Source of the DNA: an uncultured Thermotogae bacterium
GTDB lineage: Bacteria > Bipolaricaulota > Bipolaricaulia > UBA7950 > UBA9294
DNA: 64,000 bases
Reading direction: 5' to 3'
Assembly (NCBI GenBank): GCA_964608345.1
Contig: CAZSNG010000006.1
Coordinates: forward strand, 1,317 to 65,316
In this document: positions 25,246 to 43,362 of the stretch, one piece after another
Layout: the number at the start of each line of letters is the position of its first letter
How positions within the stretch are numbered: position 1 is the stretch's first letter
The notes under the pieces: model-generated
The model's database searches: none
Seen by the model: the letters and a program-made list of their open reading frames with translations, nothing else
What the model was told of the DNA's origin: nothing
Position numbers and translations under genes: made by a program

Positions 25246-25426
25246 GTGGCCTGGACAGCCCCGATCGTCCGTTCGAACGGCTTTCGATATATACGAAGTC
25301 GTGAAGATCCCTTCCCAAAGGCAGTTTGCCTCTCCATATCGGGTGTCTCGGGAAAGCCGTGAGCTCGCAAAGTTCCTCCCTGTATGATCTTTGCAGTGTC
25401 TCGCCCGGCGACGGTACGGCATTCGC

Positions 25427-25454
25427 TTGACATCGCAATTCTTGTCGATATAGT
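25427..25454 (+). promoter_or_regulatory. Sigma70-type promoter of the XRE/hydantoinase operon, with overlapping GATAT-N6-ATATC inverted repeat
   Basis: TTGACA-N16-TATAGT, 9 nt before the ATG, no SD. Confidence 0.75.
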
Positions 25455-25463
25455 GAAATATCA

Positions 25464-26018
25464 ATGGATAATGAAACGGTTGGCGGGACGATCCGGAAGC
25501 TTCGCCAGGAGCGGGCATGGACCCTGGAAGAGCTCTCATCTCGGTGCGGCCTCTCCGTCGGCTTCCTTTCCCAGGTCGAGCGGGGACTCTCCTCGTTGTC
25601 GGTGGCATCACTGAAGACAGTCACCGATGCGCTGGACGTGCCTCTTGCACAGTTCTTCTCGCTGCCGGACACCGACCGGCCTGCGATCACCAAGGCCGGC
25701 GAGCCGCACTATGTGATGCGGATCGGCAGCTCGGAGATCACGTACTCGATGCTGTCGGGAGCCCGACCGAACCGAACGATGGAGGCGTTCATCGCGGAAT
25801 ACCCGCCCGACTACGTTCCGCCGGTTCTGCCGCACGAGGGCGAGGAGTTCGCCTACGTCCTCTCCGGCAAGATCCTGTTGGTCTTCGAAGACGAGGAACA
25901 TGTTCTCGAACCGGGTGACTCGTTCCAGATCGACTCCAACCGACCGCACACCGTGCGCAACCTGGAGGCCGAGCCTGCGCGCATTCTCTGGGTGCAGACA
26001 CTAATGATTCTTCGCTGA
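25464..26018 (+). CDS. XRE-family HTH plus cupin transcriptional regulator (PuuR/SutR-like)
   Basis: IRKLRQERAWTLEELS...SVGFLSQVERG; cupin HEGEEFAYVLSG...PHTVRN. Confidence 0.95.
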   Translation: MDNETVGGTIRKLRQERAWTLEELSSRCGLSVGFLSQVERGLSSLSVASLKTVTDALDVPLAQFFSLPDTDRPAITKAGEPHYVMRIGSSEITYSMLSGARPNRTMEAFIAEYPPDYVPPVLPHEGEEFAYVLSGKILLVFEDEEHVLEPGDSFQIDSNRPHTVRNLEAEPARILWVQTLMILR

Positions 26019-26035
26019 TTGAGGAGGAGCAACGC

Positions 26036-28093
26036 ATGCCGAAGCGTCTGGCGATCGACATTGGGGGGACGTTCACCGATCTCGTGGCTCTCGATGAGAC
26101 CACGGGAGAGATCACACTAGAGAAGGTACTCACCACGCCGGGCAACTACGCCGACGGCGTAACACACACCATCCGCAAGAGCCAACTCGATCCCAAGACG
26201 GTAGCGCAGTTCGTTCATGGAACCACAGTGGTGATCAACGCGCTCACCGAGCGCCACGGAGCAAAGGTTGCTCTGATCACGACCCGCGGATTCCGTGATG
26301 TTCTCGAGATTCAGCGTGGCAATCGAACCGATATGTACAACCTGCTCTACGAGAAGCCGAAGCCGTTCGTCCCGCGCCGCCATCGGTTTGAGGTCAGCGA
26401 GCGCGTGTCCTTCCGCGGTGACGTCCTGATCCCGCTCTCCGAGGACGAGGTGACCGAGATTGCCGGGGAGTGCCGTCGAGAAGAGATCGAGGCGATCGCT
26501 GTCTGCTACATCCATGCCTACGCGAACCATGCGCACGAGATTCGGACTCGCAAGATCATTGAGCGGATCTGTCCCGACGTGGCTGTGACGTTGTCGCACG
26601 AGATCACCCAGGAGTGGCGCGAGTACGAGCGGACCAACACCACGGTGATGAACGCGTACGTCAAGCCGGCGACGACCCGATACCTCTCGACGCTCGATCA
26701 GGAGCTTTCGACAATGGGGTTGGCCGGGCCGAAGTACGCGATGCAATCGAACGGCGGGACGACGACGTTCGCCCAGGCTCAGCGAGTTCCGATCCATCTC
26801 ATCGAATCAGGACCGGTCGGGGGCGTGATCGGCGCCGGCGTGCTCTCCGAGGCGACCGGCGACACGAGCATGATCTCGTTCGACATGGGCGGGACAACCG
26901 CCAAGGTGAGCCTGATCGATCACGGGCAGATCAGGATTGACACCGACTACCACCTGGAGAAGAGCACGACGTGGGCCGGCTACCCGCTGCGGATCCCGGT
27001 CGTCGACATCGTCGAAGTCGGTGCCGGCGGCGGGTCGATCGCTTGGATCGACGCTGGCGGCGCGCTCCACGTCGGACCACGGAGTGCCGGCGCCGATCCA
27101 GGTCCCGCCTGCTATGACCTTGGCGGGATCGAGCCGACGGTGACCGACGCGAACCTAGTGACCGGACGGCTGAGCGCCGACTACTTCCTCGGAGGGCAGA
27201 TGAAGCTGAACACGGCCAAGGCGGAGGCCGCGGTCCGCAAGATCGCCGAGCAGTTCGGTCTTTCGGTCACCGATGCGGCTCTCGGGATCATCCGACTGAC
27301 CAACGCGAACATGCAGGCGGCCCTCGAGCGCGTCTCCATTGAGCGCGGCTACGATCCGCGCGATTTCACCCTCGTCGCCAACGGGGGAGCCGGCGGTCTG
27401 CACGGAGCGACCCTGGCGCGCGAGTTGAAGCTGCGGAAGGTGATCGTTCCGCAGGCGCCGGGCCAGTTCTCGGCCTGGGGGATGCTGATGACGAATCTGC
27501 GGCACGATTTCATCCGCACCCGCGTGTCGGACTGCTCCGCCGCCAACCTGGGGGAGATTCGCCGCACATTCGCGGAACTCGATCGGGAGCCAGCCGAGCA
27601 ATTCGCCGCCGAGGAGTTCCCGAAGGACCGTGTCTGGATCGAGCGTTTTCTCGATCTGCGCTATCGGGGGCAGGAGCACACCGTGCGGACACCCATCCGG
27701 GCCGACGAACTCGACGGCGGTCAACTCGATTCGGTCATCGCCCGCTTCCACGACCTGCATGAGCAGGCCTACTCGTTCCGGCAGGACGACCCAGTGGAGA
27801 TCGTCAACTTCCATGTCGTCGGGTGGGGGCGGGTCGACAGGCCCGATTTCGTGCCACGCGAGATTGAAGGAGCCAACAGGGACGCGGCCGATAAGGGAAC
27901 GCGACCGGTCGTCTTCGAGGGCGAGGGAACGGTCGAGAGCCGCGTCTTCGAGCGCGGACTCCTTCCGACCGGAGAGACGATCGACGGTCCCGCAGTGATC
28001 GAAGAGCCGGCGTGCACCACCATCGTCTGCCCGTCGCAACGGGTGGAGGTCGACGAGTTCGGCAATCTCGTTATCACGGAGGTGGCGGCATGA
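26036..28093 (+). CDS. Hydantoinase/5-oxoprolinase A subunit (ATP-binding, HyuA-like)
   Basis: IDIGGTFTD, HGTTVVINAL, EYERTNTT, ESGPVGG, DMGGTTA, GAGGGSIA, GPRSAGADPGPACY, PTVTDAN. Confidence 0.95.
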   Translation: MPKRLAIDIGGTFTDLVALDETTGEITLEKVLTTPGNYADGVTHTIRKSQLDPKTVAQFVHGTTVVINALTERHGAKVALITTRGFRDVLEIQRGNRTDMYNLLYEKPKPFVPRRHRFEVSERVSFRGDVLIPLSEDEVTEIAGECRREEIEAIAVCYIHAYANHAHEIRTRKIIERICPDVAVTLSHEITQEWREYERTNTTVMNAYVKPATTRYLSTLDQELSTMGLAGPKYAMQSNGGTTTFAQAQRVPIHLIESGPVGGVIGAGVLSEATGDTSMISFDMGGTTAKVSLIDHGQIRIDTDYHLEKSTTWAGYPLRIPVVDIVEVGAGGGSIAWIDAGGALHVGPRSAGADPGPACYDLGGIEPTVTDANLVTGRLSADYFLGGQMKLNTAKAEAAVRKIAEQFGLSVTDAALGIIRLTNANMQAALERVSIERGYDPRDFTLVANGGAGGLHGATLARELKLRKVIVPQAPGQFSAWGMLMTNLRHDFIRTRVSDCSAANLGEIRRTFAELDREPAEQFAAEEFPKDRVWIERFLDLRYRGQEHTVRTPIRADELDGGQLDSVIARFHDLHEQAYSFRQDDPVEIVNFHVVGWGRVDRPDFVPREIEGANRDAADKGTRPVVFEGEGTVESRVFERGLLPTGETIDGPAVIEEPACTTIVCPSQRVEVDEFGNLVITEVAA

Positions 28094-29826
28094 CCGCAAA
28101 GCATGCGATCGATCCCTTCACCGTCGAAGTCATCAAGCGGGCCTTGATCTCTGCCGCCGAACAGATGTTCGTCGCTCTCGGCCGCACTGCCAAGAGCTCA
28201 GTCATCTACGAGGTGCTCGACTACGGATGCGCGATTACAGACGCCGCCGGCCGGATGATCGCCCAGGCGAACGGGATCCCGGCCTTCATCGGTGTGCTGA
28301 GCGATGCGGTGCTCGACGTGATCGAGAAGTTCGGCCTCGACGGCCTCGAAGAGGGCGACATCATCATCACCAACGATCCGTACATGGGTGGAGCGACGCA
28401 CCAGAACGACGCCGTGCTGATCCTTCCGATCTTCTACCAAGGCAAGCCGGTGATGTTCTCGGCGAGCAAGGCGCATTGGAACGACATCGGAGGCAAGGAT
28501 CCCGGAAGCTGGTCGCCGAACGCGACCGATATCTATCAGGAAGGGCTCCAGTTCCCGGTGGTCAAGATCTTCAATGCCGGCGTGGAGAACCGCGACATCG
28601 TCGACATCCTCTCCCGCAACGGACGGATCCCGGAGATGACGCTCGGCGACATGCGAGCCCAGGCCGCCTCCCTGCGCGTCGCGGCGAAACGGGCTCAGCA
28701 GATCTGCGACAAGTACGGGCTCGACACGGTCCTAGAGTCGGTTGAGGTCTATCTCAAGCAGGGGCGGCAAGAAGCGCTGGCCGAACTGAAGAAGTTCCCG
28801 AAGGGTGAGTACACCGCCGAGGAGCACATCGACGACGACGGACTCGGCGGCGACCCAGTATTGGTGAAGGTCAAGGTGACGATCAGCGAAGACGAGTTCG
28901 TCATCGACTACACTGGAACCGGCGGGACCTGCCGCGGGCCGATCAACAGCCCTCTCTCGGTGCTGATGTCGACGGCCAAGTTCGCCTTCCAGTCGGTCCT
29001 CGCCCCGCACGCCGACCCGAACGAGGGATTCTTCTCGCCGCTGAGGGTGATCGTCCCCGAGGACACGGTGTTCAACCCAAAGCGGCCGGCGCCGGTCAGC
29101 ACCTACTGGGAGTCGGACGCCTACGCAGGCGACGTGGTCTGGCGAGCGCTCGCCGACGCGATCCCGGACCGGATCACGGCCGGACACTTCCTGAGTGTCT
29201 GCGGCACGATCGTCAGCGGGATCGATGACGAGTCCGGCGAGTGGTTCTTCTCGGTCGAACCGAACGCCGGTGGCTGGGGTGCCGGACGCGGCAAATCGGG
29301 CGAGAGCGGCCTGGTCTGCTCGGGCGACGGGGAGACCTACATCCTGTCGATCGAAGTGGCCGAGACTCGCTACCCGATGATCGTCGATCAGTTCTCACTC
29401 AACATCGCCGACGGCGGACACGGGGAATGGCCCGGCGGCCACGGCCTGATCAAAGACTACCGGATCACCAATTCGCAGGCCCTGGTCACCGCGAGCTTCG
29501 GACGGAGCACGTTCCCGCCTTGGGGGCTGGCTGGTGGACAGGACGGGACCCCGAACGACGTCGAGATCCGAAAGGTCGATGGGAGCGTCGAGCGACGAGG
29601 TCGCTTCTCGAGCGAAGTGCTCGGGGACGGCGACATCGTCCGGTTCATCACCGGCACCGGCGGAGGCTACGGCGATCCGCGCGAACGGGATCCGAAACTC
29701 GTCCTCAGCGACGTACTGGACGGCTACGTCTCGGTCGAGGCAGCCCGCGACGTCTACGGCGTCGTCCTCGAAGGCGACCCGCTCCGGGTTGACGACGACA
29801 AGACCACGGCGGCCAGGGGAGGATAG
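28090..29826 (+). CDS. Hydantoinase/5-oxoprolinase B subunit (HyuB-like)
   Basis: IITNDPYMGGATHQND, KAHWNDIGG, DIYQEG, GGWGA, TGTGGGYGDP; ATGA overlap with the A subunit. Confidence 0.95.
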   Translation: MTAKHAIDPFTVEVIKRALISAAEQMFVALGRTAKSSVIYEVLDYGCAITDAAGRMIAQANGIPAFIGVLSDAVLDVIEKFGLDGLEEGDIIITNDPYMGGATHQNDAVLILPIFYQGKPVMFSASKAHWNDIGGKDPGSWSPNATDIYQEGLQFPVVKIFNAGVENRDIVDILSRNGRIPEMTLGDMRAQAASLRVAAKRAQQICDKYGLDTVLESVEVYLKQGRQEALAELKKFPKGEYTAEEHIDDDGLGGDPVLVKVKVTISEDEFVIDYTGTGGTCRGPINSPLSVLMSTAKFAFQSVLAPHADPNEGFFSPLRVIVPEDTVFNPKRPAPVSTYWESDAYAGDVVWRALADAIPDRITAGHFLSVCGTIVSGIDDESGEWFFSVEPNAGGWGAGRGKSGESGLVCSGDGETYILSIEVAETRYPMIVDQFSLNIADGGHGEWPGGHGLIKDYRITNSQALVTASFGRSTFPPWGLAGGQDGTPNDVEIRKVDGSVERRGRFSSEVLGDGDIVRFITGTGGGYGDPRERDPKLVLSDVLDGYVSVEAARDVYGVVLEGDPLRVDDDKTTAARGG

Positions 29827-29833
29827 CGCGACG

Positions 29834-30352
29834 ATGGAACTCCACGAGGCGATCCGCGGCAGACGGAGTGTGCGACGGTTCCTGCAGGAGCCGATTGAAC
29901 GACCGATTCTCGACCGGCTCATCGAGGCGGCGATGTGGGCTCCGTCCGGCGGGAATGCGCAAACGTGGCGTTTCGTCGTGGTCACCGAGCCGGAGAGGAT
30001 CGCAAAGCTTCGGACGGTGAGTCCGGGCCTGCTTGGCGATCCCCCCGTGGTGATTGCTGTCTGTCAGGATCTTGCCGAAGCCAGGGCCAAGGGGAGTACG
30101 CTCGGAGAGACGTTCCTCGCCCCGCTCGACTCGGCGATGGCGACGCAGAACCTTCTTCTGGCGGCACACGCCGAGGGGCTTGGTACGTGCGTGATCGCGT
30201 CGTTCCACAAGCGAGCGGTCGGCCGTCTGCTCGAGCTCCCGGATCGGGTCGAGGTGGTGCTGCTCGTCTCCGTCGGACGACCGGCCGAGTCACCGAACCC
30301 GCCGTCGCGAAGGACCGAGGGGATCGTCCATTATGAGGCGTTCCATGGATAG
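29834..30352 (+). CDS. Nitroreductase-fold flavoprotein, AlbA-like (cyclodipeptide oxidase subunit A)
   Basis: RRSVRRF, WAPSGGNAQTW, LRTVSPGLLGDP.VIAVCQD (resembles recalled AlbA LRAFSPGVLGTP..VVACVD), AMATQNLLLAAHAEGLGTC; followed by an AlbB-like gene. Confidence 0.85.
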   Translation: MELHEAIRGRRSVRRFLQEPIERPILDRLIEAAMWAPSGGNAQTWRFVVVTEPERIAKLRTVSPGLLGDPPVVIAVCQDLAEARAKGSTLGETFLAPLDSAMATQNLLLAAHAEGLGTCVIASFHKRAVGRLLELPDRVEVVLLVSVGRPAESPNPPSRRTEGIVHYEAFHG

Positions 30353-30671
30353 AGGTTCGCTTGAGCGCAAGGTCTTTGATCTGATCGGCTACATGGCGAC
30401 CAGCGGGCGGAACCTGATCGACGAGACGCCGCTCTACGGTCCGTTTCGTTTGGTCGACGCGGCGAGTCGACTGATCGAGATTCTCGAAGGTGAAGGCATC
30501 GGAAGCTCCCGCCTCTCCACGCTGCGCGAGCGAATCGATGCAGGGAAGTACTCCGTGATGGTCGACGCGGAGGAATACAAGGACTACCTCGATGGCGTCG
30601 TCGACGCGGTCGTCGACCACATGGACAGTGACACGAGCAAAGGAGGTGAAGCTTCGCCCACAGGCACGTGA
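30345..30671 (+). CDS. DUF6092 / AlbB-like protein (cyclodipeptide oxidase subunit B)
   Basis: YMATSGRNLIDETPLYGPFRLVDAASRL...RLSTLRERID aligns by memory with AlbB YLLSSGRGLLEEPADYGIYRCTDGARRA...RLTAVRERLD; 8-nt overlap with the upstream gene. Confidence 0.8.
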   Translation: MDRGSLERKVFDLIGYMATSGRNLIDETPLYGPFRLVDAASRLIEILEGEGIGSSRLSTLRERIDAGKYSVMVDAEEYKDYLDGVVDAVVDHMDSDTSKGGEASPTGT

Positions 30672-30715
30672 AGAAGGGAGGGAACGACAGCACAAGCGCA
30701 CGGGAGGTGCAGGAA

Positions 30716-32287
30716 GTGAAGAGAATACTGATTGTTGCACTGGCAGCAGTGATGGCATTTGGCGTGATCGGACTTGCGGATGGCGCCCTTCGGGTGACGT
30801 TCGCCTGGCCGACGCACATCGATCCGGCGGTCGGATCGGACTTCTCCAGTTCGTCGGCGTTCGTCAACCTGTACGATACGCTCGTCTATCCGACGTCGAG
30901 CGGCGATCCGGTTTCGCACGTCGCCACGAGCTGGGACGTCACCGAGGACTCGCTCCAATGGACGTTCCACCTTCGCGACGACGTCTACTTCCACGACGGC
31001 ACGAAGCTGACGGCGAACGACGTGAAGTACTCGATGGACCGCCTAACGACGATCGGTGAGGGCTACGGCTTCCTGTTTATCGGCCGCATTGCCAGCACCG
31101 AAGTCATCGACGAAACCACGGTCCGGTTCAACCTAGCGGCCCCATTCGGCCCGTTCCTCTCAACCCTCTATCGTCTGTACATCGTCAACATGGCCCTGGT
31201 CGAGGCGAACACGGTCACGCCGGGTGCTTACGGTGACTTCGGTGATTACGGGAAGACGTTCCTCGTCGACAACGACGCCGGGAGCGGACCGTATATCGTC
31301 GAGGAGTTCCGCGTCGAGGAAGAGCTGGTGATGACCAAGAACTCAAGCTACTGGCTCGACATCGACGCCGATGCGCCGGACGAGGTTCGCTTCATCGGCA
31401 CGACCGAGACGGCCACCGTCCGAACGATGATGGCCCGCGGAGAACTGGAGATCTCCGACCAGTGGCAGACGAGCGAGGCGATTCAGGCACTCGACGCGAT
31501 GGACGGGATCGACATCGCCGCGTTCTCGCCGGGGACGATCTTCTACATGATGATCAACATGAAGATCGCGCCGACCGACGACATCCACTTCCGCAAGGCG
31601 ATGGCCTACGCGACCGACTACGACACCGTCATCACCCACATCTTCCCCGACACGTACCAGGCCCGCGGTCCGGTCCCGCAGAACATCCCGGGCGCCGATC
31701 CAACGGTCTTCCAGTATTCGCTCGATTTGGACAAGGCGCGCGAGGAGCTGGCGTTGTCGAAGTATGATCCGGCCGACTACGAAGTCGAACTCCACTGGAT
31801 CGCCGAAGTGCCGGACGAGGAGAAGGTGGCGCTGATGTTCTTGGCGAACATGGCCGAGATCGGGATCAACGTCAAGGTCGTGAAGGTGCCGTGGATGTCG
31901 GTCGTCGAGGAGATGGGCGCGCTCGAGACGAGCCCGCACATCGTGACGATCTTCGACTCCTCGCACTACCCGGAGGCCGGTTCGCTGATCGAATCCCGCT
32001 ACCATTCCAGCTCCGCCCCCACGTGGGAGCAGAACGAGTGGCTGCTCGACGAGGCACTTGATGCGATGATCGAATCCGCGATCAACACGGTCGATCAGGC
32101 AGAGCGGTTCGCGAGGTACGCCGGATTGCAGCACATGATCACGGCCCTTTGCCCGACGATCTTCCTGTTCGAGCAAGTGGAGAAGCACGCCTATCTGGCG
32201 GACAAGATCGATTGGCCGACCGCTCGCGGCGAGGTCAATCCGGTCATGGGCTACAACATGGCGGCTCGCTTCATCAAGATCAAGTAG
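30716..32287 (+). CDS. Peptide ABC transporter substrate-binding protein (family 5, DppA/OppA-like)
   Basis: Sec signal peptide, NLYDTLV, FHLRDDVYFHDGTKLTANDVKYS, GSGPY, FRKAMAYA; GGAGGT RBS before GTG. Confidence 0.95.
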   Translation: MKRILIVALAAVMAFGVIGLADGALRVTFAWPTHIDPAVGSDFSSSSAFVNLYDTLVYPTSSGDPVSHVATSWDVTEDSLQWTFHLRDDVYFHDGTKLTANDVKYSMDRLTTIGEGYGFLFIGRIASTEVIDETTVRFNLAAPFGPFLSTLYRLYIVNMALVEANTVTPGAYGDFGDYGKTFLVDNDAGSGPYIVEEFRVEEELVMTKNSSYWLDIDADAPDEVRFIGTTETATVRTMMARGELEISDQWQTSEAIQALDAMDGIDIAAFSPGTIFYMMINMKIAPTDDIHFRKAMAYATDYDTVITHIFPDTYQARGPVPQNIPGADPTVFQYSLDLDKAREELALSKYDPADYEVELHWIAEVPDEEKVALMFLANMAEIGINVKVVKVPWMSVVEEMGALETSPHIVTIFDSSHYPEAGSLIESRYHSSSAPTWEQNEWLLDEALDAMIESAINTVDQAERFARYAGLQHMITALCPTIFLFEQVEKHAYLADKIDWPTARGEVNPVMGYNMAARFIKIK

Positions 32288-32307
32288 CGGCAGACCGCAG
32301 GACTGAC

Positions 32308-32336
32308 GGGCGGGCGGGCCGCGAGCCCGCTCGCCC
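32308..32336 (+). other. GC-rich intergenic hairpin after the substrate-binding protein gene (mRNA stabiliser/attenuator)
   Basis: GGGCGGGCGGGC-CGCGA-GCCCGCTCGCCC, 12-bp stem with one G-U, no U tract. Confidence 0.6.
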
Positions 32337-32365
32337 ACTGATCATCGAAACGAGGGCAGACGCTC

Positions 32366-33394
32366 ATGAGCATTGTCAGGTTCCTTGTCAAGCGCCTGGT
32401 CTTCTCCGTCTTCGTCCTCCTCGGCTTGTCGATTCTCATCTTCACGATCTCCCGCGTTCTTCCGGGAGATCCGGTGCGAATGGCCTTGGGATCGCGAGCA
32501 CCGGAGTGGGCCGTGGAGAACATGCGGCGGGAGATGCATCTCGACGAGCCGCTCTACAAACAGTACGCCTTCTGGCTCTCCGGGGCCGTGCGCGGCGATC
32601 TGGGAACCTCGCTGGTGACCCGTCGTGCGGTGAGCACCGACGTGAGAGAATTCCTTCCCGCAACGCTCGAGCTGGCGTTGTTCGCGGCGGTGATCATGGC
32701 CGTCTTCGGCATCCTGTTCGGGGCGATCGCGGGACGGTTCCGGAATACGTGGGTCGACAACGTGATCCGCGTCTTCTCCTACATCGGAGTCGTCACCCCG
32801 TCGTTCGTCTTCGCGATCCTGTTCGTGCTCCTGTTTGGCTACCTGTTGAGGATCCTGCCGACGATCGGGCGTCTGAGCCCGTGGATCTCGCGACCGCCGA
32901 CAGTGACCGGGCTGATGACGATCGACTCGCTGATCGCGGGGGACTTCGCCGCATTTGGAGACGCATTTCAGCACATGATCCTCCCCGCGCTCAGTCTGTC
33001 GCTCGGTTCGCTGGCACAGCAGGCACGGATCGCGCGTTCTTCGATCAGTGACAATCTCGGTAAGGACTACATTCTCTCGGCCAAGGGGTTCGGGATCCCG
33101 GGGCGCGTAGTGATGTTCAAGTACCTGTTGAAGCCATCCCTGATCCCGACCGTGTCGATCATGGGACTCGATTTCGCCGGGATCGTTGCCAACGCCTTCC
33201 TGGTCGAGTTGATCTTCAATTGGCCGGGTTTTTCCCGTTATGGGATCAACGCGATGCTCAACAAGGACCTCAACGCCATCGCCGCCGTCGTGATGGTCCT
33301 CGGCCTGATCTTCATCACCGTCAACATCATCGTCGACTTGGTCGTGGCGTGGCTCGACCCGCGAATCCGGCTCGGCGCGGAAAGGGGGAAGTAG
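32366..33394 (+). CDS. Peptide ABC permease, DppB-like
   Basis: LPGDPV, LDEPLYKQY, GDLGTS, PATLEL, TPSF, EAA-like ARIARSS...YILSAKGFG. Confidence 0.95.
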   Translation: MSIVRFLVKRLVFSVFVLLGLSILIFTISRVLPGDPVRMALGSRAPEWAVENMRREMHLDEPLYKQYAFWLSGAVRGDLGTSLVTRRAVSTDVREFLPATLELALFAAVIMAVFGILFGAIAGRFRNTWVDNVIRVFSYIGVVTPSFVFAILFVLLFGYLLRILPTIGRLSPWISRPPTVTGLMTIDSLIAGDFAAFGDAFQHMILPALSLSLGSLAQQARIARSSISDNLGKDYILSAKGFGIPGRVVMFKYLLKPSLIPTVSIMGLDFAGIVANAFLVELIFNWPGFSRYGINAMLNKDLNAIAAVVMVLGLIFITVNIIVDLVVAWLDPRIRLGAERGK

Positions 33395-33395
33395 G

Positions 33396-34283
33396 ATGCC
33401 TGAAGGACCTAAGTACAGCGGGCTCCAGCGCCGGTGGGAGGCGCTCCGGAAGGGATGGTACAAGTTCTCCCGCAATCCGGTCTCCGTCATCGGACTCGTG
33501 TTCGTCTTCGGCGTCGCCTTCCTCGCGATCTTCGCATCCTATGTCGCACCTTATCCCACTCACGCCGGGAGGTTTGTCGACTTCGCTACGGGATCGCAGC
33601 CCCCGAGCCTTCAGCACATCTTCGGAACCGACGTCTTCGGGCGTGACATCCTGTCGCGCGTCTTCTTCGGGTTCCGCTATTCGCTGATGATGGGCGCTGT
33701 CGTCCTCTCGCTGGTCGTGATCCCTGGAGTGGTCCTAGGACTGATCGCGGGATACTACCGCGGCACGTGGATCGACACGGTGATCATGCGGATCACCGAT
33801 GTCTTCATTGCAGTCCCGGCCTTGATCCTGGCGCTTGCCGTATGCTCGGTTCTGACGCCGAACATCTTCAACGCGATGATGGCCGTCTCCTTGATGTGGT
33901 GGCCGTGGTACACGCGGCTCGTCTACGGTCTCGCGTCGTCGCTGCGGAACGAGTTCTTCGTCCAGTCGGCAGAGGTGACCGGAGCGAGCCGACGTCACAT
34001 TCTGTTCCGCGAGCTCCTCCCGAACTGCGTCTCGAGCATCTTCACCAAGATGAGCCTCGACATGGGCTGGGTCATCCTCATCGGATCCGCGCTGAGCTTC
34101 GTGGGTTTGGGAGCGCAGCCGCCGATCCCCGATCTTGGGACGATGGTTGCGGATGGTGCGAAGTACGTTCCGGATCAGTGGTGGATCGCGATCTTCCCCG
34201 CCTTTGCGATCATGATCGTCGTGCTCGGTTTCAACCTGCTCGGCGACGGATTCCGTGACCTGTTCGCGCTCGAGGAGATCTAA
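33396..34283 (+). CDS. Peptide ABC permease, DppC-like
   Basis: HIFGTDVFGRDILSR, LSFVGLGAQPP, WWIAIFP, GFNLLGDG. Confidence 0.95.
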   Translation: MPEGPKYSGLQRRWEALRKGWYKFSRNPVSVIGLVFVFGVAFLAIFASYVAPYPTHAGRFVDFATGSQPPSLQHIFGTDVFGRDILSRVFFGFRYSLMMGAVVLSLVVIPGVVLGLIAGYYRGTWIDTVIMRITDVFIAVPALILALAVCSVLTPNIFNAMMAVSLMWWPWYTRLVYGLASSLRNEFFVQSAEVTGASRRHILFRELLPNCVSSIFTKMSLDMGWVILIGSALSFVGLGAQPPIPDLGTMVADGAKYVPDQWWIAIFPAFAIMIVVLGFNLLGDGFRDLFALEEI

Positions 34284-34284
34284 C

Positions 34285-35274
34285 ATGACCGAACACGTGC
34301 TCCAAATCAGCGATCTCCACGTCGAGTTCAAGGTCTACGAGGGTCGGCTCAAGGTCCTCAACGGCGTTGACATGGACGTCGAGCCCGGGGCCCGCGTTGG
34401 CCTTGTCGGGGAGGCCGGCTGCGGCAAGACGACGACGATGCGCTGCGTGCTCGGGATTCTGCAATCCCCGCCGGGGAGGATCACCGACGGGACGATCCTG
34501 TTCCACGGTCGGGACATCCTCAAGATGTCGCAGGCGAATCTGCAGCGGATCCGCGGCGGCGGAGTCTCGATGATCTTCCAGGATCCGGTCGCGGCGCTGA
34601 ATCCCGTCTTCACCGTGGGCGACCAATTGACGTCCGTCATTCGCTACGCCGCGTCGAAGAAGATGGACAAGAAAGAGATCCGGCGGCGTGCGGTCAAGGC
34701 CCTCGCCGACGTCCAGCTTCCCGATCCGGATCGGATGTACACCAGCTACCCGGTGCAGCTGTCGGGGGGGATGAGGCAGCGGGTCTGCATCGCGATGGCC
34801 CTGGCGACCGAGCCGGAGTTGATGATCGCCGACGAGCCGACCACCGCCCTCGACGTGACGATCCAGGCGCAAGTGCTTCGGCTGCTCAGCGAGCTCGTCG
34901 AGGAGCGATCGACCTCGGTCATCTTCATCACTCACAGCCTCGGCGTCGTCAAGGAGATGGCCGACTGGGTCTACGTGATGTACGCGGGGAACATCGTCGA
35001 GGGGGCGAAGAAGGAGATTCTGTTCGAGAAGCCGCTCCACCCCTACACGCTCGGCCTGATGGGCGCGCTCCCGAAGCTGACCGGCGGCGGAATCGCCGAG
35101 GGGATCCAGGGTCGGATTCCGGACTACCTCAATCCGCCGGCCGGATGTCGATTCAATCCCCGGTGTTCCCGGGTGATGGGGAAATGCGGAGGCGAGCGGC
35201 CGGGATTCCTCGAAGTCGAGCCCGATCACCGCGTTGCCTGCTACCTCTACGGGGAGGGTGACGATGTCGAGTGA
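34285..35274 (+). CDS. Peptide ABC ATPase, DppD-like
   Basis: GEAGCGKTT, LSGGMRQR, IADEPTTALD, HPYT, GCRFNPRC. Confidence 0.95.
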   Translation: MTEHVLQISDLHVEFKVYEGRLKVLNGVDMDVEPGARVGLVGEAGCGKTTTMRCVLGILQSPPGRITDGTILFHGRDILKMSQANLQRIRGGGVSMIFQDPVAALNPVFTVGDQLTSVIRYAASKKMDKKEIRRRAVKALADVQLPDPDRMYTSYPVQLSGGMRQRVCIAMALATEPELMIADEPTTALDVTIQAQVLRLLSELVEERSTSVIFITHSLGVVKEMADWVYVMYAGNIVEGAKKEILFEKPLHPYTLGLMGALPKLTGGGIAEGIQGRIPDYLNPPAGCRFNPRCSRVMGKCGGERPGFLEVEPDHRVACYLYGEGDDVE

Positions 35275-36259
35275 TCTGCTGATCGTCGAGAACCTGAAGA
35301 AGCACTTCGTGACGTCACGCGGCACCGTCCGTGCGGTCGACGATGTGTCGTTCACCGCAGTGGAAGGTGAGACCCTCGGTATCGTCGGTGAATCGGGCTC
35401 CGGGAAGAGCACGATCGCTTACACGATCATCGGCCTTCACGCGCCGACCGACGGGAAGATCACGTTCGACGGCAAGGACATGTCGACCGGGGTCAGCAAG
35501 CGGCCGCGATCGCTGAAGCGTTCGATGCAGATCGTCTTCCAGGATCCGGGGACGTCGCTCAATCCGCGTCGGACGATCGAGCAGATCCTCGCGCTCCCGC
35601 TCCAAGTGCACGGGATTGGTACGCGCCGGGATCGTCGAACCAGGATCAGCGAGCTGCTCAAGCGGGTCGAGCTGCCGACCGACTACTTGTTCAAGTCGCC
35701 GCACATGCTCGGCGGCGGGGAGCGGCAGATGGTCGCGATCGCCCGTGCACTCGCGACGGACCCGCAATTGGTGATCCTCGATGAGCCGACATCGGCTCTC
35801 GACGTGTCGATTCAGGCGAAGATCATCAACATGCTCTGCCGTTTCCAGGATGACATGAATCTGACCTACCTGTTCATCACTCACGATCTGAGCCTGATGC
35901 GGAACGTGGCGTCGCGGGTAGCGATCATGTATCTCGGCAAGGTCTACGAGCTGGCGCCGACCGACGAGTTCTTCGAGCGGCCGCTCCAGCCGTACACGAA
36001 GATGCTCTTGTCCTCGATTCCGGTCGTCCTGCCCGAAGAAGAGGCCATCAAACCGTCGCGCATTGTTCCCGAGGGCGAGATCCCGAGTCCGGTCAACGTG
36101 CCGCCCGGGTGCGGTTTCCACACCCGCTGTCCCGAGATGGGCGAGGACTGCGACGCGGACGAACCGCGGCTGGTCGAAGTCAAGGAAGGACACTTCGTTC
36201 GGTGTCACAAGTGTGCCGAGCCGATTGTGGCGGAGACCGCCGACGCAGGAAAGGAGTAG
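35264..36259 (+). CDS. Peptide ABC ATPase, DppF-like
   Basis: GESGSGKST, signature variant LGGGERQ, LDEPTSALD, GCGFHTRC. Confidence 0.95.
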   Translation: MSSDLLIVENLKKHFVTSRGTVRAVDDVSFTAVEGETLGIVGESGSGKSTIAYTIIGLHAPTDGKITFDGKDMSTGVSKRPRSLKRSMQIVFQDPGTSLNPRRTIEQILALPLQVHGIGTRRDRRTRISELLKRVELPTDYLFKSPHMLGGGERQMVAIARALATDPQLVILDEPTSALDVSIQAKIINMLCRFQDDMNLTYLFITHDLSLMRNVASRVAIMYLGKVYELAPTDEFFERPLQPYTKMLLSSIPVVLPEEEAIKPSRIVPEGEIPSPVNVPPGCGFHTRCPEMGEDCDADEPRLVEVKEGHFVRCHKCAEPIVAETADAGKE

Positions 36260-36262
36260 ACG

Positions 36263-37042
36263 ATGAGGAAGATTCTCTGGATCGATCCGGTCGGGACCAA
36301 TCTTTTCGACGAGCCGATCAAGGCGTTCCTCGACACCGCGAAGGATGGCGACACGCAGCTTGACATCTGCTCGCTCGAGCGCGGGCCGATGCATCTCGAG
36401 TACCACTACTACGAGGCGCTCATCCTTGCCGACACGTTGCACGTGGTGAAGAAGGCCGAGAACGACGGCTACGACGCGGCTGTAATCGGCTGTTTCTACG
36501 ATCCGGGACTCCACGAAGCGCGCGAGATCTGCGACCGGATGGTCGTCACCGCACCGGCCGAGTCGGCGATGCACATCGCCACCACGCTCGGCCATTCCTT
36601 CTCGATTCTCGTCGGGCGCAAGAAGTGGATTCCCAAGATGCACCAGAACGTCGTCAAGTACGGGTTCGAAGGCCAACTAGCCTCGTTCAAGTCGCTTGAG
36701 ATGGGCGTCTACGACTTCCAGAAGGACCCGGCCGAGACCGAGCGACGGATGACGGACGCTTCGCGCGAAGCAGTGGAGGAGGACGGCGCCGAGTCGATCG
36801 TCCTCGGATGCACGATCGAATTCGGCTTCTACGAGAAGCTGCAGAGGGAGATCGGCGTCCCAGTCATCGATGCGACGATCGCCCCGCTCAAGTATGCCGA
36901 GTTCCTGGTCGGCCTCCGCGATCGATTCTCGTGGGGGCACAGCAAGGTCTACGGCTACGAGTCGCCGCCTGGCTCGGAGATCGTCGACTGGAAGCTTGCA
37001 TCGCAGTACGACATCGAAGGGCTATGGGGGACGACGGAATGA
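36263..37042 (+). CDS. Asp/Glu/hydantoin racemase family (hydantoin-racemase-like)
   Basis: DAAVIGCFYDPGL, SIVLGCT, GVPVID: both catalytic Cys motifs present. Confidence 0.9.
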   Translation: MRKILWIDPVGTNLFDEPIKAFLDTAKDGDTQLDICSLERGPMHLEYHYYEALILADTLHVVKKAENDGYDAAVIGCFYDPGLHEAREICDRMVVTAPAESAMHIATTLGHSFSILVGRKKWIPKMHQNVVKYGFEGQLASFKSLEMGVYDFQKDPAETERRMTDASREAVEEDGAESIVLGCTIEFGFYEKLQREIGVPVIDATIAPLKYAEFLVGLRDRFSWGHSKVYGYESPPGSEIVDWKLASQYDIEGLWGTTE

Positions 37043-38643
37043 GCAACACCGCACAACTGCGAGTCGGGTTCGACGTTGGCGGGACGTTCACCGACGGCGT
37101 GTTGATGATGGGGCGCGAGGTCATCGCTAAGGCGAAGTCGCTCACCACCCAAGACGTCACCTCGGGGATCGTCGAGGCGCTCGACCGCGTTCTCGAGGGA
37201 TCGGCCGTCGACCTGAGCCGGATCTCGATGGTCTCGCTCGGAACGACGCACACGACCAACGCACTCATCGAGCGCCGAAACCTGAACAAGGTCGGCATCT
37301 TCCGGCTCGGCGCGCCCGCAACGACCGCGATCCCGCCCTTGACCGGGTGGCCGGACGACCTGAAGGAGGCGATCGGCGGGCAGGAAGTTGTCTATGTCAT
37401 CCGAGGCGGATCGGAGTACGACGGCCGCGACATCGTGCCGCTCGACAAGCAGGCGATCGCGAATGCGTGCGCGGCGATGAGGGGGAAGGTCGACTCGGTA
37501 GCGATCACCGGCGTCTTCTCGCCGATCATCTCCGATCACGAGGAATGGGCCGAGGAGGTCGTACGAAGCGTGCTCGGGGACGAGATCCACGTCACGCTGT
37601 CCCATCGAATCGCGACGATCTCGCTCCTCGAGCGGGAGAACTCGACGATCCTCAATGCCGCGGTGATCACGGTGATGCAACGTGCCGTTCAGTCGCTGAA
37701 AGCGGCGGTCGCCGAGCGTGGGATCGAGGCGCCGCTGTTCATCGTCCAGAACGATGGGAGCGTGATGTCGGCCGATTACGCCGTCGACTACCCGATCTTC
37801 ACCGTCGCTTCCGGCCCGGCGGCCAGTGTGCGGGGATCGGTCTATCTCTCAGGTATTGAAGACGGCGTTGTCGCCGACATCGGCGGGACATCGACCGACG
37901 TCGCCTACATCGTCAAGGGATTCCCGCGTGAGTCGTCGATCACCGTCAACATCGGTGGTGTGAAGACGAACATCCGCTGTCCCGACCTCCTGTCGATCGC
38001 GCTCGGCGGCGGGACGATCGTCAAGCACGAAGGGGACGACGTCACCGGCCTCGGGCCGGAGAGCGTCGGCTACAACCTCGTCCGGCTCGGCACGTCGTTC
38101 GGCGGGCCGCTGCTGACCGTCCACGATACCGCCGTCGCCCTCGGCAAGCTCGACACGCGGCTCGACGTCTTCACAACGGACTTCGTCACTGCGCCGGAGA
38201 AGATCGCGGCCGTGCCTCGCTCGCTGATCGAAAGCGCGTGGGAGGCGATCCGGAAGACGATCGAGGAAGCGATCGACAAGATGAAGACGACGGCCGAGCC
38301 GGTCCCCGCCATCTTCATCGGCGGCGGAGCGCTCGTCGTTCCCAAGACGGGCCTCTCCGGCGTGAGCGAGGCGATCAGTCCCGATCACTTCGAGGTGGGA
38401 GGCGCGGTCGGGACGACGATCGCCGAGATCGGGGCCTACGCCGAAGGCGTTGTGGATCTCGACGTGGAGGACCGCGACGAAGCGATCGAGCGAGTCACTG
38501 AGCACGCGATCGACAACGCCGTCAAGGCGGGCGCGATCCGCGAGACGGCCGAGGTGATCGACATCGAGGAGATTCCGTTCACCTACATGCCCGGCAAACG
38601 CGAGAAGATCCGGATCCGCGTGAAAGGGAAGGTGCTGCAGTGA
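37039..38643 (+). CDS. Short hydantoinase/oxoprolinase A-like ATPase (DUF917-associated type)
   Basis: GFDVGGTFTD, LGTTHTTNAL, LERENSTILNA, SGPAASVRG, DIGGTSTD, LGGG. Confidence 0.9.
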   Translation: MSNTAQLRVGFDVGGTFTDGVLMMGREVIAKAKSLTTQDVTSGIVEALDRVLEGSAVDLSRISMVSLGTTHTTNALIERRNLNKVGIFRLGAPATTAIPPLTGWPDDLKEAIGGQEVVYVIRGGSEYDGRDIVPLDKQAIANACAAMRGKVDSVAITGVFSPIISDHEEWAEEVVRSVLGDEIHVTLSHRIATISLLERENSTILNAAVITVMQRAVQSLKAAVAERGIEAPLFIVQNDGSVMSADYAVDYPIFTVASGPAASVRGSVYLSGIEDGVVADIGGTSTDVAYIVKGFPRESSITVNIGGVKTNIRCPDLLSIALGGGTIVKHEGDDVTGLGPESVGYNLVRLGTSFGGPLLTVHDTAVALGKLDTRLDVFTTDFVTAPEKIAAVPRSLIESAWEAIRKTIEEAIDKMKTTAEPVPAIFIGGGALVVPKTGLSGVSEAISPDHFEVGGAVGTTIAEIGAYAEGVVDLDVEDRDEAIERVTEHAIDNAVKAGAIRETAEVIDIEEIPFTYMPGKREKIRIRVKGKVLQ

Positions 38644-39818
38644 GCGATCGACGGACCGACCCGCGCAGGATTCTTGCCGACTGGGGTGTCACCGGTTTCC
38701 GCGTGATTGACAAGGAAGCGATCAGCGAGATCACCCTCGGGGCGTCGATCCTCGCCACCGGCGGCGGAGGCGATCCGGAGATCGGCCTCCTCTGGACATA
38801 TAAGGTGATCGACGAGGGGAAAGAGATCCTGATGGTCGACCCGATGGACGTTCCAGACGAGGTGCAAACGGCCAGTGCGGCCTGCCTCGGCGCGGCGATC
38901 GTACTGACCGAGAAGCCGCCGAGCAGCTCGGTGATCAACCTGGCGATCCGGAAGCTGGAAACGTACATGGACTGCTCGATCGAGGCGATGATTCCGCTCG
39001 AATGCGGCGGCGTGAATTCGCCTGTCTCCTACGCGGCAGCCGGCGAGTTCGGAATCCCCGTCATCGATGTCGACGGGATGAACCGTGCCTTCCCGGAACT
39101 CCAGATGACATCGTGGGTAACGCACGGCTGTCACTCGTCTCCGACCGTCTCGGTCGACGACCGGCAGAACATCTCCGTGATTGACACCGGCGACGACGAC
39201 ATGCTGGCCGAGACACTGGCGCGGCGGGTAGCCATGGCCTACGGAGGAATCTCGTGGATCGCCACCTATCCGCTGACCGGAGCGCAGATGAAACGAACGT
39301 CGATTCTCGGCTCGCAGAGCATCGCCTGGGCCGTCGGTCGCGCCGTGATGCGGGCTCGACGGGAGCACCTCGACCCGATCGCCGAACTGCTGGGCAGCCT
39401 GAAGGAAGAGCGAAATGTCGAGGGCTATCGGGTCTTCCGCGGGAAGATCGTCGATATCCGTCGCGACTTCGGATCCGAGACGAACAAGGGTTTCACCCTC
39501 GGATCGATCGTGATGGAGGGGATCGACGACTACAAGGAGCAGACGGCGAGGCTCGACTTCCAGAACGAGTGGCTCAACCTACGAGTCAACGACGAGATCC
39601 TCTGTCTCCCGCCTGACCTGATAGCGATCCTCGATTCGGAGACGGGCGAGCCGATCCGAACCGACATCATGAAGTACGGATACCGGGGGACAATCGTCCT
39701 CATCCCGGCACACGAGCGGATGAGAACGCCCAAGGGGATCGAGATGTTCGGTCCGCGCCACTTCGGTTATGACCTTGACTACGCAACGGTCGAGGAGCTG
39801 AACGAACACAGGAGGTGA
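38640..39818 (+). CDS. DUF917-family protein, paralog 1
   Basis: LATGGGGDP, PLECGGVN, DVDGMNRAFPELQMTS, FQNE, PPDLI, GEPIRT. Confidence 0.9.
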   Translation: MSDRRTDPRRILADWGVTGFRVIDKEAISEITLGASILATGGGGDPEIGLLWTYKVIDEGKEILMVDPMDVPDEVQTASAACLGAAIVLTEKPPSSSVINLAIRKLETYMDCSIEAMIPLECGGVNSPVSYAAAGEFGIPVIDVDGMNRAFPELQMTSWVTHGCHSSPTVSVDDRQNISVIDTGDDDMLAETLARRVAMAYGGISWIATYPLTGAQMKRTSILGSQSIAWAVGRAVMRARREHLDPIAELLGSLKEERNVEGYRVFRGKIVDIRRDFGSETNKGFTLGSIVMEGIDDYKEQTARLDFQNEWLNLRVNDEILCLPPDLIAILDSETGEPIRTDIMKYGYRGTIVLIPAHERMRTPKGIEMFGPRHFGYDLDYATVEELNEHRR

Positions 39819-39825
39819 TGGGGGA

Positions 39826-40095
39826 GTGGACTACGAGGGATTGTTCGCAGGCGACGCTCGTCATCGCGAGGTCTTGAAGGCGATCCTCGAGTCGCCGTTC
39901 ATCGAGCGCCAGGCGCTTGGCGAGAAGCTGGCCGTTCCGAGCGACGAGCTCGATCCTCTCCTCGCGGCGTTGGTGGAGAAGATGCTGGTGCTCGAGCTGG
40001 CGAGCCAGGCCGATTCCAGCATCGAGGCTCGCGTCCCGAAGACGGTGTACATGATCAACCCCGAGGAGGAAGCAGGCGTCCGTGAGCACGTGTAA
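39826..40095 (+). CDS. Small hypothetical protein, possible winged-helix fold
   Basis: 89 aa, GGGGA RBS, coupled to both neighbours; amphipathic HTH-like pattern (REVLKAIL..P...LGEKL....ELDPLLAALVEK.LV). Confidence 0.6.
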   Translation: MDYEGLFAGDARHREVLKAILESPFIERQALGEKLAVPSDELDPLLAALVEKMLVLELASQADSSIEARVPKTVYMINPEEEAGVREHV

Positions 40096-41188
40096 GCCGA
40101 TCGATCATGAGAAGCGAATCGTTGCGTTGCAGCGCGAGATAGCGACCGCATCGGTCGACCTCGTCCTCCTCTTCCATCGCGACAACATCCGCTATTTCAC
40201 CGGGTTTCGGATCAACAAAGTCATCTCGTCGGTCCTCGCTGTTCCGCGGAGCGGGCCGCCGACGTACGTTGTGGCACGGCTCGACATGGAGCGCGCCAAG
40301 CGCGACTGCTGGATCGAGCAGCTGATCGCGTTTCCGGAGGACACGCCAGACCCTCTCTCCGCCCTGGATCCGCTCCTTCCGGCGCCGGTGAAGCGGATCG
40401 GCGTCGAGCATGGAACGATCACGCTCGAGCAGGCCGAGTTCATCAAGGGTCGGCGAGCAGCGGAGACCGTGTTGCTCGATGCCCAGCCGCTCGTCGATCG
40501 CCTCCGCGTGATCAAGAGCGTGGCCGAGATCGAGCGGCTGCGTGAATCGGCGCGGATCGCGAGTCGGGTCATGCAGCGGATTCAGGCCGAGCTCCGGCCC
40601 GGGCTGATCGAGGCGGAATTGGCGGCGTGGACCGAGCACCTGCTGGTCAAGGAAGGGGCCGAGGGCTCGTCGTTCGAGGCATTCATGACCTCGGGCGCCA
40701 ACGCGTGGCTCCCACAACGTGTCCCGGTGCGCAAGCCGATCCGAGACGGGGAAATGATCCTCCTCGACATGGGTGGGGTCTACGACGGCTACTGCTCCGA
40801 CATCACGAGAACGCTTTCGACCAACGGCCTCTCACCCGACCAACGGCGGCTATTCGACAGCGTTCGGCGGGCGTATGAGCGCGCGCTTGACGCAGTGCGG
40901 TCGGGTGTGACGGCTGAGGAGGTCGATGCCGCGGCCCGAGACCTGCTGCGCGCCGAGGGGTACGGCGAGTACTTCACCCACCTCACCGGACACGGGATCG
41001 GCCTGTCGACGCACGAGGGCCCGATCGTCGACGAGCACGTCGAGACCGTCCTCGCACCGGGGATGGTCTTCACGGTCGAGCCCGGGGCGTACGTACCGGG
41101 TGTCGGCGCGGCGCGGATCGAGGACATGGTGTTGGTCACCGAAACGGGGTACGAGATCCTGACCGACGCCCCACGCGAGATCGAGTAG
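40082..41188 (+). CDS. M24 Xaa-Pro peptidase (prolidase/aminopeptidase P)
   Basis: LLDMG, YCSDITRT, HLTGHGIGLSTHE, TVEPG, RIED metal ligands. Confidence 0.95.
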   Translation: MSTCKPIDHEKRIVALQREIATASVDLVLLFHRDNIRYFTGFRINKVISSVLAVPRSGPPTYVVARLDMERAKRDCWIEQLIAFPEDTPDPLSALDPLLPAPVKRIGVEHGTITLEQAEFIKGRRAAETVLLDAQPLVDRLRVIKSVAEIERLRESARIASRVMQRIQAELRPGLIEAELAAWTEHLLVKEGAEGSSFEAFMTSGANAWLPQRVPVRKPIRDGEMILLDMGGVYDGYCSDITRTLSTNGLSPDQRRLFDSVRRAYERALDAVRSGVTAEEVDAAARDLLRAEGYGEYFTHLTGHGIGLSTHEGPIVDEHVETVLAPGMVFTVEPGAYVPGVGAARIEDMVLVTETGYEILTDAPREIE

Positions 41189-41214
41189 GACGGGCAGGCG
41201 AGGAAGGAGCGATC

Positions 41215-43346: not shown

Positions 43347-43362
43347 AGAGGCCGCAAGTATA

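Follow-up and report, generated by a model that had tools for sequence, protein, structure and literature searches.

A synthase-less cyclodipeptide-oxidase-like gene pair in an import and hydrolysis operon of a Bipolaricaulota bacterium

The 64,000-nucleotide stretch of contig CAZSNG010000006.1 analysed here (the window) comes from an uncultured bacterium of the Bipolaricaulota lineage. It carries two overlapping plus-strand genes whose products resemble the A and B subunits of the cyclodipeptide oxidases (CDOs), designated CDOA and CDOB below. The two genes are the fourth and fifth of a tightly packed unit of 17 plus-strand genes (25464-43346), which also encodes an ATP-binding cassette (ABC) importer and several hydrolases.

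The gene pair and its flavin site

The CDOA and CDOB reading frames share 8 nt, read directly from the sequence at 30345-30352 (ATGGATAG), and the CDOB stop codon in turn shares 4 nt with the GTG start of the following binding-protein gene. The larger protein belongs to the Pfam Nitroreductase family (PF00881, E 5.1e-33). A sequence search of the PDB placed AlbA (8uc3_A, 6.9e-33) first and NdasCDO-A (9exv_A, 3.7e-32) second; the third match stood at 8.4e-24, and other nitroreductases trail these two by about nine orders of magnitude. The small protein is a DUF6092 member (PF19585, E 5.3e-26), scoring 91.2 bits against a Pfam cut-off of 28.7 bits, and its only meaningful solved relatives are AlbB (8uc3_D, 7.3e-9) and NdasCDO-B (9exv_C, 6.5e-8). 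DUF6092 is a small family, with 196 clusters at E <= 0.001 among 1.84 billion representatives. The AlphaFold2 (AF2) model of CDOB has four helices (mean predicted local distance difference test score, pLDDT, 86.8) and agrees with the published description of AlbB. Sequence comparison thus places both proteins in their families far beyond chance, and assigns the pair to the CDO family as a synthase-less member comprising CDOA and CDOB. An earlier note, made from the letters of the DNA, had described a nitroreductase gene overlapping a 108-codon gene, had taken the two for AlbA and AlbB homologues and had proposed a profile search of the small protein for DUF6092; the 8-nt overlap, the top PDB matches and the Pfam score bear it out on all three points.

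In AlbA, C115 carries a covalent 8α-S-cysteinyl flavin mononucleotide (FMN; PMC11055893), and NdasCDO-A is flavinylated at C121 (PMC11760959). The position of AlbA C115 is occupied by an Asp in the window CDOA, on which the HMMER and MAFFT alignments agree. A survey of 62 CDOA sequences from related genomic loci (L013-L077), all of them synthase-less, found an Asp there in 60, from many phyla. The Cys of the IAVCQD motif, which the earlier note had taken for the covalent FMN site, pairs with AlbA C91 and not with C115; an equivalent Cys also occurs in the unrelated nitroreductase 4dn2. With an Asp at the true site, the IAVCQD Cys was ruled out as the flavin attachment point. The motif pairings that the note had drawn were sound: SPGLLGDP aligns to SPGVLGTP of AlbA and IAVCQD to VVACVD, SGRNLIDETPLYGPFR of CDOB aligns to SSGRGLLEEPADYGIYR of AlbB, and the catalytic Tyr of AlbB is conserved together with its Glu and Arg neighbours. 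The note was also right that the AlbA motif APTASN reads APSGGN here, a change that exchanges AlbA S54 for Gly.

The equivalents of AlbA R24, R28, N55 and R175 are retained in the window CDOA (R24, R28 and R175 being the FMN-phosphate arginines), and R24, R28 and N55 are invariant across the 62 sequences; a Ser stands at the position of AlbA T52. AlbA E121 is replaced by Gln, as in 55 of the 62. The window CDOB retains the equivalents of AlbB E33, Y37, G38, R41, D44 and M78, with E27, Y31 and R35 corresponding to E33, Y37 and R41. Among 66 CDOB sequences surveyed, Y37, G38, R41 and D44 are invariant and E33 is found in 61. In AlbAB, mutation of the catalytic Tyr (Y37F) abolishes activity, and the S54A mutant, which lacks the Ser of APTASN that supports this Tyr, is 62-fold slower (PMC11055893). 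These alignments indicate that the FMN-holding interface and the catalytic Tyr are preserved in the window pair, and that the covalent link and the Tyr-supporting Ser are not. Because an Asp replaces the flavinylated Cys, the FMN is probably bound non-covalently. A literature search returned no clear precedent for a covalent Asp-flavin link, which we consider only a remote candidate. The near-invariant Asp could mark the synthase-less class, separating two functional classes of the family; the text and supplementary legends of PMC11055893, as searched, make no mention of an Asp at this position.

The packed operon and its relatives

The features of the window are collected in Table 1. Its gene map is clear from third-codon-position bias at a G+C content of 62-68%. 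Within the 17-gene unit, neighbouring genes overlap by 1-14 nt or lie at most 26 nt apart, the sole exception being 78 nt before the first permease gene, and the unit is translationally coupled. The sigma-70-like match upstream of the regulator gene is the only strong one in 25000-44500; the number of matches does not exceed the shuffle expectation, so the match is weak evidence for a promoter. The regulator heads the operon in relatives too. The 89-aa open reading frame (ORF) has counterparts of 53-57% identity at the same position of other Bipolaricaulota operons.

Table 1. Positions of the gene pair and other features in the window
Feature	Position	Strand	Remarks
CDOA-like FMN subunit, nitroreductase fold, 172 aa	29834..30352	+	ATG 29834 to TAG 30352; best PDB match AlbA
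CDOB-like subunit (DUF6092), 108 aa	30345..30671	+	ATG 30345 to TGA 30671
Sigma-70-like promoter match	25427..25454	+	TTGACA-16-TATAGT, 11/12; just 5' of the regulator gene
Helix-turn-helix (XRE) + cupin regulator, first gene of the unit	25464..26018	+	Pfam HTH_3, Cupin_2; PuuR-like but below cut-off
HyuA, ATP-dependent lactamase/hydantoinase alpha subunit	26036..28093	+	Pfam Hydant_A_N, Hydantoinase_A, Hydant_A_C
HyuB, catalytic beta subunit	28090..29826	+	Pfam Hydantoinase_B, E 1e-167; 4-nt overlap with HyuA
Family-5 (Dpp/Opp/Nik type) solute-binding protein	30668..32287	+	Pfam SBP_bac_5
Two ABC permeases, DppB/DppC type	32366..34283	+	Pfam BPD_transp_1, OppC_N
Two ABC ATPases, DppD/DppF type	34285..36259	+	Pfam ABC_tran, oligo_HPY
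Asp/Glu/hydantoin-racemase family protein	36263..37042	+	Pfam PF01177, E 2e-32
Short HyuA-like ASKHA ATPase, 534 aa	37039..38643	+	Pfam Hydant_A_N, Hydantoinase_A; paired with DUF917
DUF917 / S-Me-THD-like protein	38640..39818	+	Pfam PF06032, PF20906
Conserved 89-aa ORF	39826..40095	+	matches no Pfam or NCBIfam family
M24 peptidase with Creatinase_N domain, PepQ/prolidase-like	40082..41188	+	NCBIfam PepQ 212 bits, under the 630-bit cut-off
Second DUF917 paralogue	41215..42357	+	profile searches
Proline-racemase-family protein (proline racemase, hydroxyproline epimerase or hydroxyproline dehydratase), last gene of the unit	42357..43346	+	Pfam Pro_racemase, E 6e-90
M42 aminopeptidase	21856-22923	-	upstream peptidase set
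NicX-like/M29-related protein	23105-24148	+	upstream peptidase set
PepT-like M20 tripeptidase	24172-25245	+	upstream; TIGR01883 283 bits, above the 274-bit cut-off
Methyltransferase, ABC ATPase, NMT1/THI5-like binding protein, permease, thiamine pyrophosphokinase	17665-21474	-	flank syntenic with contig L009
PF00144 serine hydrolase, class C beta-lactamase / D-aminopeptidase-like	51134-52504	-	far under every NCBIfam beta-lactamase cut-off
MoxR-type AAA ATPase, DUF58, BatA-like and von Willebrand A-domain (VWA) proteins	2644-8769	-	typical MoxR-VWA cluster
Phage-integrase-family ORF, short, 205 aa	12810-13427	-	

The closest solved structures of HyuB are N-methylhydantoinase 7hk5 (4.9e-82) and then chain 6yra_B, deposited as 'Hydantoinase' (2e-64), and the acetophenone and acetone carboxylases rank behind these hydrolases. 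The best NCBIfam models of HyuA and HyuB are caprolactamase CapA and CapB, at 559 and 274 bits against cut-offs of 1000 bits; because the scores lie far under these equivalog cut-offs, the identity of the HyuAB substrate is not transferable. The proline-racemase-family protein likewise stays below the cut-off of every NCBIfam equivalog. The HyuAB and PF01177 members of the classical hyu gene set are present, and its carbamoylase member was not found among the ORFs scanned: the Pfam scan returned no N-carbamoylase-type enzyme or CN-hydrolase domain in them, and the M20 protein matches a carbamoylase-family structure only marginally (5tp4, 9e-8).

The short HyuA-like ATPase regularly adjoins DUF917, both in the window (37039-39818) and in distant relatives. 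In archaeon HR01 (L053, 6762-13046) this pair occurs twice in tandem around CDOA and CDOB. The recurrent pairing suggests that the two might form a two-subunit ATP-dependent enzyme analogous to HyuA/HyuB.

The earlier note had stated that no cyclodipeptide synthase (CDPS) or nonribosomal peptide synthetase (NRPS) is present in the window, and this was upheld by two approaches. None of the CDPS, Condensation, AMP-binding and PP-binding domains was found by Pfam in about 55 ORFs scanned across the 64 kb, and a tblastn search of the window with AlbC yielded no match below E 5.3. Extending the AlbC search to 1.07 Mb (the window and 78 related loci) gave nothing at E < 0.3, a weak test since CDPSs diverge strongly. 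The presence of the importer and hydrolases in the same unit also supports the note's view of a context of import and hydrolysis rather than biosynthesis.

JGI metagenome contigs as long as 118 kb contain an identical copy of the region, and the nearest named relatives of its CDOB are from Ca. Bipolaricaulota/Acetothermia. The GTDB representative genomes gave no match to the window at species level, and the best locus found among them is 68% identical over the CDOB match. Upstream, the flank running from the methyltransferase gene to the M42 gene is syntenic with contig L009, whose CDOB is labelled Acetothermia. The stretch of 15 genes that begins with the regulator and ends with the M24 peptidase recurs in unchanged order in Bipolaricaulota contigs whose CDOBs are 55-68% identical to that of the window; the flanks of these contigs differ. 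Ca. Bipolaricaulis, the sole closed genome of the phylum, was described as an anaerobic fermenter of peptides and amino acids with no complete respiratory chain (PMC6092417).

A survey of species-representative genomes yielded 66 loci, from Bipolaricaulota, Anaerolineae, Atribacterota, Bacillota, Thermodesulfobacteriota, Bathyarchaeia, Thermococci, Desulfurococcales, DHVE2 and others. In bacteria and archaea alike the two genes are closely spaced, with the CDOB start projected to -29 to +13 nt relative to the CDOA stop in 58 of 65 loci. Partners were counted in those 44 loci that span 10 kb or more. DUF917, often in several copies, was the most frequent (31/44), followed by Dpp-type permeases (25/44), the PF01177 racemase (24/44), NicX-like proteins (19/44), any HyuA-like protein (18/44) and HyuB (12/44). 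NicX-like and M20 homologues recur beside the pair in other phyla, and AroM, DUF1177 and an NCS1 permease are present in some clusters.

In the complete genome of the Firmicute Ca. Formimonas warabiya (L045, NZ_CP017634, 1734-18243), a regulator, Dpp genes, racemase, CDOA, CDOB, M24, HyuA and HyuB genes are followed directly by genes for ferredoxin and the alpha, beta and gamma subunits of a 2-oxoacid:ferredoxin oxidoreductase; these neighbours hint at a 2-oxo acid as a possible pathway product. In the Thermotogota-labelled metagenome-assembled genome JBDKUT010000009 (L011/L024, 6558-10306), the pair is preceded only by genes for an AMP-binding (adenylating) enzyme and an M20 hydrolase, with no Hyu, DUF917 or transporter genes. 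This locus represents a different context, possibly a biosynthetic one.

Elsewhere in the window, three stretches (42357-47478, 56561-58300 on the minus strand, and 58896-59933) hold the proline-racemase-family gene, a second helix-turn-helix-cupin regulator, a flavin adenine dinucleotide (FAD)/Fe-S oxidoreductase (SoxA-like N-terminal part), a DAO-family dehydrogenase, a sodium:solute symporter and a DHDPS-family gene, a combination suggestive of proline or hydroxyproline catabolism. The PF00144 protein probably hydrolyses peptides or esters instead of conferring resistance. Three ORFs adjoining the integrase ORF (8766-12713) match no Pfam family.

Proposed function and competing explanations

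Our best overall reading, to which we assign a probability of about 0.5, is that the pair forms an AlbAB-like A/B flavoenzyme that carries out O2-independent redox chemistry at a Cα-Cβ bond of an imported cyclic amide, probably a diketopiperazine. Judging from the conserved residues, the two subunits would assemble as in AlbAB with FMN at the A/B interface, CDOB Y31 would act as the acid/base beside flavin N5, and hydride would be moved to or from the Cα-Cβ bond next to the ring amide. O2 is probably not the electron partner, because the host is anaerobic. As for the surrounding genes, their arrangement suggests that a small cyclic amide, likeliest a 2,5-diketopiperazine or a dehydro derivative, would enter by the Dpp-type ABC importer; its ring stereocentres would be epimerised by the PF01177 racemase, the ring would be opened at the cost of ATP by HyuAB and perhaps also by the short-HyuA/DUF917 pairs, and amino acids would be released by the M24, PepT-like M20, M42 and NicX-like enzymes.

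The direction of the redox reaction is the least certain step. We favour reduction of an α,β-dehydro residue before ring hydrolysis, with dehydrogenation coupled to some electron acceptor as the alternative. Whereas a covalent cysteinyl link raises the flavin potential, a carboxylate near the edge of the flavin is expected to have the opposite effect; reduction is favoured because the Asp should thus lower the potential and because the host is a fermenter without a high-potential acceptor. Such a reductive scheme would be analogous to the reduction of uracil ahead of dihydropyrimidinase. Dehydrogenation followed by hydrolysis to a 2-oxo acid is kept alive by the 2-oxoacid oxidoreductase genes beside the Formimonas cluster.

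A more ambitious and only tentative proposal, which we think may well prove wrong, is that the operon encodes a complete O2-independent diketopiperazine salvage pathway in peptide-fermenting anaerobes and thermophiles, comprising import, epimerisation, a Cα-Cβ reductase or dehydrogenase, ATP-dependent ring opening and dipeptidases. If true, it would assign these genes to diketopiperazine catabolism and provide a first function for the synthase-less CDO class and for its DUF917 and racemase partners. Little is known of the enzymes that degrade diketopiperazines, and a literature search on diketopiperazine hydrolases, DUF917 and thiohydantoin desulfurase returned almost nothing usable. The contig offers a clean test case, with a compact operon, a dedicated binding protein and a regulator as potential substrate reporters, and direct coupling between the flavoenzyme and an ATP-dependent lactamase-like enzyme.

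Several observations weigh against the reading of the pair as a Cα-Cβ redox enzyme for diketopiperazines. The Gly at the position of AlbA S54 is shared by 43 of the 62 CDOA relatives, and the acid/base network therefore differs from that of AlbAB. The thermodynamic case for reduction draws on general flavin chemistry only. The binding protein matches only generic peptide, nickel and opine binders in the PDB and NCBIfam and gives no clue to the ligand. A Foldseek search of the CDOB AF2 model against the PDB returned no match at E <= 0.001; the 50 matches listed were generic four-helix bundles at E >= 0.4 and did not include AlbB; because the sequence evidence is strong, this miss was not counted against homology. 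Across phyla, the pair is accompanied most often by DUF917, PF01177 racemases and NicX-like proteins rather than by HyuAB. The DUF917 protein encoded at 38640..39818 weakly resembles NCBIfam thiohydantoin desulfurases (62 bits against a 440-bit cut-off), a link that rests on model names and weak scores only. Finally, a DHVE2 archaeon (L046, 441-13127) has CDOA and CDOB embedded among five DUF917 paralogues, three racemase-family genes and one NicX-like gene, and the cluster also holds an NCS1 permease of the cytosine/purine/allantoin type, a member of a family of hydantoin and allantoin transporters.

The last three points would fit a hydantoin-type ureide as substrate (a 5-substituted or 5-alkylidene-hydantoin, or a purine- or histidine-derived ring), with the operon serving hydantoin utilisation. 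The window's HyuA, HyuB, racemase and M20 genes mirror hyuA, hyuB, hyuE and hyuC of Pseudomonas sp. NS671, the PF01177 gene in the unit is of the hydantoin-racemase family, an N-methylhydantoinase is the best solved relative of HyuB, and thiohydantoin desulfurases are the only named relatives of DUF917. Hydantoin- or allantoin-like substrates were also suggested for synthase-less operons by Andreas et al. 2024, who left the function open (PMC11055893). We regard this explanation as possible but rather unlikely, and a diketopiperazine as the more likely substrate, because the importer is of the Dpp/Opp type, because four peptidase-type genes lie in or flank the unit and the M20 protein among them is PepT-like above its cut-off with its carbamoylase match marginal, and because no carbamoylase or CN-hydrolase domain turned up in the ORFs scanned. 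The preference for a diketopiperazine is also based on the hosts, which are peptide fermenters and in many cases labelled as thermophilic lineages, and on the fact that HyuAB-type enzymes hydrolyse lactams, spending ATP. Free 5-substituted hydantoins are not known as abundant nutrients in nature. Peptides give rise to diketopiperazines spontaneously, with epimerisation, and this would account for the racemases.

The remaining explanations concern the pair itself. The earlier note had suggested, for the different chemistry that APSGGN may mean, redox-linked epimerisation or an activation for ring opening, both of them speculative. The pair would be a redox-neutral flavin isomerase or epimerase if hydride were removed and then returned without an external electron partner; the anaerobic host, the packed unit with no gene for an electron-transfer partner, the loss of the covalent link, the near-invariant Asp at the flavin edge and the recurring racemase-type genes, which suggest that stereochemistry matters, are all compatible with this idea. 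We nevertheless consider it improbable, given that the cofactor-independent racemases of the PF01177 and proline-racemase families would make a flavin epimerase redundant, that the catalytic Tyr arrangement is that of a true dehydrogenase, and that we know of no flavin epimerase reaction in the nitroreductase fold. It is very unlikely that the pair is a biosynthetic tailoring oxidase like AlbAB whose CDPS, NRPS or other ligase is encoded elsewhere in the genome. Homology to AlbAB speaks for such a role, as does the Thermotogota-labelled locus, which could be a small biosynthetic unit. The failure to find a CDPS or NRPS domain in 64 kb, or an AlbC match within the 1.07 Mb searched, and the translational coupling of the pair to importer and hydrolases all argue against it; in addition, the CDPS-linked CDOs (33 in all) are without exception actinomycete, and C115 is kept only in their CDOAs (PMC11055893). 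We give almost no credence to the pair being an ordinary NAD(P)H nitroreductase or flavin reductase beside a functionally unrelated small ORF. The CDOA-like protein does match many generic nitroreductases, but AlbA and NdasCDO-A lead the other structures by the wide interval in E-value given above, a DUF6092 gene closely follows CDOA in most loci of both domains, and its FMN-contact residues are invariant or nearly so.

Comparison with known systems

AlbAB of Streptomyces noursei (8uc3; PMC11055893) resembles the window pair in consisting of two genes with overlapping frames. AlbAB differs in having the 8α-S-cysteinyl FMN at C115, S54 and E121 where the window protein has Asp, Gly and Gln, and its E2 loop is about two residues longer than that of the window CDOA. 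It belongs to a CDPS-linked biosynthetic cluster, whereas the window pair stands with an importer and hydrolases, without a CDPS neighbour, in an anaerobic host. Canonical enzymes of the AlbAB/NdasCDO type are O2-dependent α,β-dehydrogenases of 2,5-diketopiperazines, and the anaerobic host of the window pair speaks against O2 as its acceptor.

NdasCDO of Nocardiopsis dassonvillei (9exv; PMC11760959) is the second-best PDB match for both subunits, and the equivalents of NdasCDO-B E32, Y36, F39 and R40 are present in the window. The flavinylated C121 of NdasCDO-A has no counterpart in the window protein, and its S58 is replaced by Gly. NdasCDO is CDPS-linked and O2-dependent, with flavin reoxidation as the rate-limiting step (PMC11760959).

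More distant comparisons can be made for single components. The N-methylhydantoinase 7hk5, 6yra_B, CapAB and hyuAB of strain NS671 are full-length homologues of HyuA/HyuB, and these known systems lack a CDO-like pair. CLA-ER (4qlx) and the C-terminal domain of FbiB share the fold of CDOA at distant homology and are among its weaker matches; they are homodimers without a DUF6092 partner. Both the CLA-ER enone reductase and the FbiB domain reduce the C=C bond of an α,β-unsaturated carbonyl, and they thereby offer a precedent for C=C reduction in the nitroreductase fold.

The closest parallel is the published class of synthase-less CDO-like enzymes, to which the window pair belongs. Andreas et al. 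2024 analysed 274 CDO operons, of which 88% (241/274) were without a CDPS, and found the CDPS-less operons enriched for PF01177, DUF917 and AroM genes, ABC peptide, OPT and EamA transporters and peptidases; CDOs also occur in anaerobes, perhaps with other electron acceptors (PMC11055893). In a table of that paper, five entries are from Ca. Bipolaricaulota, at least two of which carry SPGLLGDPP...CQD and RNLLDETP.YGPFRLVDA, as do the window proteins. The novelty implied by the earlier note is thus overstated, the class with the same partners, including Bipolaricaulota pairs, having been described already; our literature search found no later paper on synthase-less CDO-like enzymes. Such pairs outnumber the characterised biosynthetic ones by about 7:1 (PMC11055893) and are spread over many anaerobic bacterial and archaeal phyla. 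Like the members of this class, the window pair is accompanied by a PF01177 racemase, DUF917, an ABC peptide transporter and peptidases (21856-43346), has an anaerobic host and lacks C115, and nothing categorical sets it apart from them. What the analysis adds to the published picture is that no carbamoylase was found in the ORFs scanned, that an Asp almost always takes the place of the flavinylated Cys, that the 15-gene layout is conserved in Bipolaricaulota and that the pair is coupled directly to the lactamase-like HyuAB.

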